From Escherichia coli (GTDB taxonomy: Bacteria > Pseudomonadota > Gammaproteobacteria > Enterobacterales > Enterobacteriaceae), in the NCBI RefSeq assembly GCF_048403405.1, contig NZ_CP183129.1: a stretch of DNA of 64,000 bases; one strand, 5' to 3'. The translations under genes were made by a program, and so were the position numbers. The notes under the pieces are model-generated. The model saw only the letters and a program-made list of their open reading frames with translations. It did no database searches and was not told where the DNA came from. Of the stretch, positions 29,975 through 30,259 are shown piece by piece (within the stretch, counting starts at the first letter, position 1; every line of letters starts with the position of its first letter).

Positions 29975-30057
29975 CCCAGAGGTATTGATAGGTGAAGTCA
30001 ACTTCGGGTTGAGCACATGAATTACACCAGCCTGCGCAGATGCGCAGGTTTTTTTTT
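29975..30057 (+). ncRNA. omrA: OmrA small regulatory RNA
   Basis: Begins CCCAGAGGTATTGATAGGTGAAG and ends in the terminator hairpin CCTGCGCAGATGCGCAGG plus T9; located between galR and aas as expected for omrA/omrB; 5' end approximate. Confidence 0.8.
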
Positions 30058-30171
30058 GCCGGTCATCAATCTGTAACAGTAACCGACAATTTACACACCT
30101 CGTTGCATTTCCCTTCATTCCTTTGCGTTTTCTCACTGGCGAAGAGTCGTCGTGCAGACCACAATCAAGAT

Positions 30172-30259
30172 CCCAGAGGTATTGATTGGTGAGATTATTC
30201 GGTACGCTCTTCGTACCCTGTCTCTTGCACCAACCTGCGCGGATGCGCAGGTTTTTTTT
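30172..30259 (+). ncRNA. omrB: OmrB small regulatory RNA
   Basis: Second copy sharing the 5' CCCAGAGGTATTGAT and 3' CTGCGCGGATGCGCAGG-T8 terminator with a divergent middle; tandem with omrA. Confidence 0.8.

Follow-up and report, generated by a model that had tools for sequence, protein, structure and literature searches.

The spacer between galR and aas of Escherichia coli (585 bp, positions 29762-30346 of the window, i.e. of the whole stretch of 64,000 nucleotides analyzed here) raises the question of whether it is truly empty or contains genes missed by automatic annotation. The names of the two flanking genes have been taken from a 100%-identical E. coli record (NZ_CP128875.1) and from strain K-12. 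In this automatic RefSeq record no feature is listed between galR and aas (1563-2147, equal to window 29762-30346); since omrA and omrB have been left out by NCBI automatic annotation (one record checked), the 585-bp spacer looks empty, as the original prediction had anticipated. That prediction placed in the spacer a tandem of the small RNA genes of the OmrA/OmrB type. Work on OmrA and OmrB goes back to 2001-2006, the omrA/omrB locus is already known and there is nothing new in the feature itself.

The tandem consists of two direct repeats which agree at their ends and are unrelated in their centres. The 15-mer CCCAGAGGTATTGAT, the 5′ end common to both copies, occurs in the 64-kb window at exactly two sites, 29975 and 30172, both on the + strand, and no third site has been found in the window even when 2 mismatches were allowed; the chance expectation is about 0.06 sites and two sites were reached in 0 of 100 shuffles. 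The conserved 5′ end CCCAGAGGUAUUGAU, the target-pairing part of the OmrA-B family, is exact in both copies. Alignment of the copies revealed a common 5′ block of 24 nt (96% identity, 29972-29995 versus 30169-30192) and a common 3′ block of 38 nt (89% identity, 30022-30059 versus 30225-30262), and no alignment was obtained between the central parts. Each 3′ block forms a terminator-like hairpin with 9 pairs, 6 of them G-C, and a T-run behind it (30029-30050 and 30232-30253 in the terminator scan). The copies are 82 nt and 88 nt long and the gap from the end of the first (30056) to the start of the second (30172) comprises 115 bp. The earlier description of two RNAs of about 85 nt, situated 115 bp apart between galR and aas, with a common 5′ seed region and terminator and with divergent centres, proved base-exact in its coordinates.

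It is conceivable that the two blocks are no more than intrinsic terminators present in duplicate, or repeat elements of a long spacer, and do not represent RNA genes with transcription of their own. The 3′ blocks are indeed canonical terminator hairpins, and sub-threshold Rfam matches to Leu_leader (27.8 and 23.2 bits, gathering score 50) demonstrate that the terminator alone draws weak matches; the extra matches in a permissive Rfam search of the spacer were all sub-threshold and terminator-driven. The covariance-model search which had been called for beforehand as the check on the original prediction gave a different picture: the OmrA-B model RF00079 (gathering score 40 bits) matched both copies over model positions 1-87 of 87, taking in the 5′ end and the middle stem as well. 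The first copy scored 86.1 bits (E 2.3e-15) and the second 96.6 bits (E 6.4e-18), both on the + strand and not truncated, and apart from these two the 64-kb window contains no Rfam match above threshold. Moreover, galR is transcribed away from the copies, so nothing upstream needs terminating, conserved promoter boxes and -10 hexamers lie at fixed distances from the 5′ ends, both copies are annotated as ncRNA genes in K-12, and in vitro transcription from both promoters has been published (PMC5175337). The direction of galR, the model match over the whole RNA and the fixed-distance promoter elements led us to reject the view of the blocks as terminators or repeats, the probability of which we regard as negligible.

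The comparison with K-12 MG1655 established the identity of the two genes. The curated record of this strain contains in the same spacer omrB (b4445, formerly rygB/sraE, 82 nt, on the galR side) and omrA (b4444, formerly rygA, 88 nt, on the aas side), both classified as ncRNA. In an alignment the two spacers differed by three substitutions and by one additional T in the window. The sequences of the RNA bodies are those of K-12 omrB and omrA, the sole difference being this T, which lies in the T-run of OmrB. The first copy otherwise agrees with K-12 omrB in its sequence, its place adjoining galR, its orientation relative to the neighbours and its promoter, and the second is identical to K-12 omrA in 88 of 88 nt and likewise adjoins aas. 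Read along the + strand, OmrB thus comes first and OmrA second, which refines the original prediction, silent on the order. The two copies are, almost certainly, omrB and omrA, the genes of paralogous Hfq-dependent sRNAs which constitute separate transcription units in the galR-aas spacer, each with its own promoter and intrinsic terminator; none of the observations speaks against this identification. The coordinates of all elements are collected in Table 1.

Table 1 Features of the galR-omrB-omrA-aas region (coordinates refer to the window; distances are counted from the first nucleotide of the respective RNA)
Feature	Position	Strand	Basis
galR, left flank, transcribed away from omrB	28730-29761	-	343-aa ORF; annotated in NZ_CP128875.1 and K-12
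omrB upstream box AACCTTTGGTTACACTTTGC, -79 to -60	29896-29915	+	nearly invariant in 15 omrB-position promoters
omrB second conserved box GCTGTTGCGATTG, -54 to -42	29921-29933	+	conserved in 15 species
omrB -10 hexamer TAAAGT (-12T), -12 to -7 of 29975	29963-29968	+	TA.AGT conserved
omrB	29975-30056 (to 30057 with the extra T)	+	RF00079; K-12 b4445
OmrB intrinsic terminator, 9-pair hairpin and T-run	30029-30057	+	terminator scan; covariation
omrA upstream region, -114 to -60, containing CTGTAACAG and ACACACCTCGTTGCA	30058-30112	+	need for OmpR activation taken from literature
omrA promoter box CTGTAACAG	30071-30079	+	conserved in 16 species
omrA promoter box ACACACCTCGTTGCA	30093-30107	+	conserved in 16 species
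omrA box TCATTCCTTTGCGTTTTC, -57 to -40	30115-30132	+	conserved in 16 omrA-position promoters
omrA -10 hexamer CACAAT (-12C), -12 to -7 of 30172	30160-30165	+	CACAAT conserved
omrA	30172-30259	+	RF00079; K-12 b4444
OmrA intrinsic terminator, hairpin and 8-T run	30232-30259	+	terminator scan; covariation as for OmrB
aas, right flank, same direction as the sRNAs	30347-32506	+	719-aa ORF; annotated aas

The secondary structures of the two RNAs are stable relative to shuffled sequences: the predicted fold of OmrB has an energy of -26.6 kcal/mol (z -2.9) and that of OmrA -29.5 kcal/mol (z -2.7). The minimum-free-energy folds of both include the terminator hairpins, and the predicted fold of OmrA leaves its 5′ 15 nt single-stranded. 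Among 29 aligned RNAs the terminator helix exhibited compensatory double changes at three of its nine pairs (in 8, 2 and 2 sequences) with one non-standard pair among all cells, and the GGUG/CACC stem was invariant. Folding of the aas leader (30260-30370) detected no structured element there (z +0.71).

The conservation of the locus within the species was assessed with a 701-bp query (window 29700-30400) searched in 5426 complete E. coli genomes. The stretch with the spacer was found in 5423 of them, with an identity of at least 99% in 5287. Three genomes remained unmatched, 18 more had a coverage below 80%, and two of the matches were located on plasmids.

For wider comparisons species-representative genomes were scanned for the exact 15-mer, which yielded at least 120 stretches; 80 were listed, most of them chance matches in unrelated phyla, and the Enterobacterales loci among the matches listed made up the comparative set. 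As the 15-mer served as the search pattern, the lack of variation in the 5′ 15 nt is a circular result here and has not been counted. Among the matches listed RF00079 recognized at least 27 further copies in at least 19 Enterobacterales loci (66-97 bits). Synteny was examined by tblastn with the GalR, Aas and LysA proteins of the window, and the order galR-sRNA-aas was established wherever the locus extends far enough, i.e. in Citrobacter, Enterobacter, Escherichia albertii, Lelliottia, Shimwellia, Siccibacter and Edwardsiella; in Serratia the sRNA genes also lie between galR and aas, with larger gaps, and the loci of Kosakonia and Pluralibacter cover the aas side only. The start-to-start spacing of the tandem amounts to 188-201 bp in most genera and to 275 bp in Serratia grimesii. 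The 5′ end, GGUG/CACC stem and terminator of the window RNAs recur in other Enterobacterales, as does the galR-omr-aas synteny, but the centres there are genus-specific and some genera have a single copy.

This pattern of variation bears on the possibility that the region encodes small proteins, instead of or besides non-coding RNAs. Three ORFs overlap the copies: 29901-30020 (39 aa, TTG start), 30040-30192 (50 aa, ATG) and 30152-30268 (38 aa, GTG). They run, however, across terminators and promoters, and the centres have been replaced wholesale from species to species, with length changes not divisible by three. The 5′ end has been conserved together with the GGUG/CACC stem and the terminator, a pattern expected of RNA structure and not of codons. 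On these grounds we rejected a coding function, which we hold to be extremely improbable, in favour of the two RNA genes.

Copy number varies among the loci of the comparative set. One OmrA-B copy per locus was found in Serratia bockelmannii, Lelliottia, Superficieibacter, Siccibacter, Shimwellia, Dickeya and Erwinia, and two in Serratia grimesii; single or chimeric omr copies have been reported (PMC13425233), with which the single-copy loci agree. In Pantoea stewartii (locus L030, 2747-4879) and Pantoea sp. (locus L059, 647-2694) the OmrA-B copies are about 2 kb apart in place of about 0.2 kb. In the former a 579-aa ORF (2936-4675, + strand) is located between them, the product of which, judged by eye, resembles a penicillin-binding transpeptidase. 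Sibling sRNAs with a common seed and separate promoters are also represented by the pair RyhB/IsrE of Salmonella and by Qrr1-5 of Vibrio. These are paralogous Hfq-dependent sRNAs too, which pair through a common region and are controlled by different transcriptional inputs; the likeness is one of logic only, their sequences and regulons being unrelated to those of OmrA/OmrB.

The promoters were compared by aligning the 125 nt upstream of each copy among Enterobacterales, 15 promoters in the omrB position and 16 in the omrA position. The conserved boxes established by this alignment differ between omrB and omrA (Table 1); two conserved boxes have been described for PomrB and four for PomrA (PMC13425233). 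AACCTTTGGTTACACTTTGC corresponds to the published box B2, where the RstA/OmpR-type site is situated, and GCTGTTGCGATTG is presumably box B1. It has been shown that the changes T-75C and A-68G in box B2 of PomrB abolish the activation by multicopy RstAB and decrease the activation by pOmpR from 81-fold to 3.3-fold (PMC13425233); both T-75 (29900) and A-68 (29907) are present in the window. In vitro OmpR-P activates both promoters on templates starting at -114, but does not activate a PomrA template starting at -60 (PMC5175337). The omrA region required for activation therefore corresponds to 30058-30112, which is intact in the window and fits wholly inside the 115-bp gap, after the omrB terminator. 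According to a review, C at -12 is the determinant of the sigma-S dependence of omrA and T at -12 makes omrB sigma-S independent (PMC12692685); in the window these positions are occupied by C (30160) and T (29963), respectively. Binding of OmpR at omrA and omrB has been detected by ChIP (PMC3945435). The inspection of the upstream OmpR sites suggested with the original prediction thus argues for them, the conserved boxes as well as the bases defined by mutagenesis being present (PMC13425233, PMC12692685).

Simple motif searches were less informative. The OmpR-type consensus GTTACAN4GTTACA with up to 3 mismatches was matched 51 times in the window versus 50.4 expected, i.e. at the level of chance, in agreement with the published view that a strong common consensus is lacking among OmpR targets (PMC3945435). 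A simple scan of the spacer for a full-consensus sigma-70 promoter gave 0 matches, an outcome to be expected of activator-dependent promoters; the -35 region is poor in both. With the first scan at chance and the second empty, the sequence alone would not establish OmpR control; the case for the putative OmpR sites is built on conservation and literature, not on a motif match.

The few differences from K-12 raise the question of whether both genes are functional in this strain. The tail of OmrB (30049-30057) contains 9 T versus 8 T in K-12, and at 30135, about -37 of PomrA, A replaces the G of K-12, leaving the RNA unchanged; the two further substitutions in the spacer (29831 and 29846) are located on the galR side. 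One copy might accordingly be a decaying duplicate, non-functional here, and the single-copy state of several Enterobacterales (also PMC13425233) indicates that one copy can be lost. Against such decay, both RNA bodies match functional K-12 genes, every conserved box and -10 hexamer has been kept in both promoters, and the base at 30135 varies among two-copy species. Neither termination nor Hfq binding would be expected to suffer from a tail of 9 U in place of 8 U. We consider the loss of function of either copy highly unlikely and retain the interpretation of two intact genes. There is a slight chance, although a small one, that the 9-U tail and the A at 30135 measurably alter OmrB termination or Hfq binding, or OmrA expression; if so, E. 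coli lineages would differ naturally in how strongly the OmpR feedback loop acts.

For this strain the whole course of regulation and pairing is deduced from the literature on the identical K-12 RNAs. EnvZ-OmpR would activate both promoters directly via sequences from about -114 to -60; omrA would additionally depend on sigma-S via the C at -12, and omrB could additionally be activated by multicopy RstB-RstA via its own conserved upstream boxes. In K-12 OmrA and OmrB bind Hfq, and their conserved 5′ end pairs with the 5′ UTR of ompR and, in ompT and cirA, with the region of translation initiation (PMC2588501). The repression of ompT and cirA needs Hfq and RNase E, and through that of ompR-envZ the RNAs exert negative feedback on their own activator (PMC2588501; PMC5175337). 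By analogy, the RNAs of the window would bind Hfq and pair through the common single-stranded 5′ end (nt 1 to about 20, with the core at nt 2-10) near the ribosome-binding sites of the targets, predicted to comprise ompT, cirA, fecA, fepA, csgD, flhDC, dgcM, flgM and ompR. Such pairing would block translation and, for at least ompT and cirA, also induce RNase E-dependent decay. As ompR-envZ would itself be a target, OmrA and OmrB may limit their own synthesis, and the divergent centres may provide copy-specific targets, e.g. btuB for OmrA.

The pairing was modelled by RNAduplex, using the window RNAs, the K-12 target leaders and shuffled seeds as the control. The 5′ end CCCAGAGG was placed opposite CCUUUGGG in ompR (-17 to -10) and CUUCUGGG in ompT (+13 to +20), and in cirA opposite the Shine-Dalgarno region (-17 to -9); for all three mRNAs these are the published positions (PMC2588501). 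Relative to shuffled seeds the duplex energies were weakly distinctive, with z of -0.9 to -3.0 for ompR and ompT and a null result for cirA (z -0.2 to -0.3). This is to be expected, as the authors of the pairings themselves call them short, and the energies are unusable as independent proof of pairing.

Several other elements were noticed in the window. At 29775-29792, 14 nt before the start codon of galR, there is an imperfect palindrome, GTGGGTAAACGCTTACAT, which on inspection by eye resembles a gal operator; if it is one, GalR/GalS would act on galR itself. The first 14,000 nucleotides or so (from position 1) correspond to the ETT2 type III secretion cluster with EscV/SctN/SpaN/YscQ/EscR-S-T-U, PrgH, needle, SctI, EscJ, OrgA, ygeH and ygeG; relative to strain TUM14771 this stretch exhibits 21 gap openings over 10.4 kb, and many genes are flagged as frameshifted in the TUM14771 record. 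At the other end, from about 58860 to 64000 and past the end of the window, five genes have been found between amiC and a tRNA-Met cluster, encoding a PRD-domain protein with an internal stop, PTS EIIC, MalY/PatB, KpsF/GutQ and phosphoglycerate dehydrogenase. We presume that the five are absent from that site in K-12, in which case they would form a small, putative strain-variable island beside the tRNA genes.

The practical value of the finding is that of annotation, as the recognition of omrA and omrB stops the galR-aas spacer from being taken as unexplained. For the biology of the organism it means that two regulators are encoded in this spacer which act on the composition of the outer membrane, on iron uptake, on motility and on the formation of biofilms.
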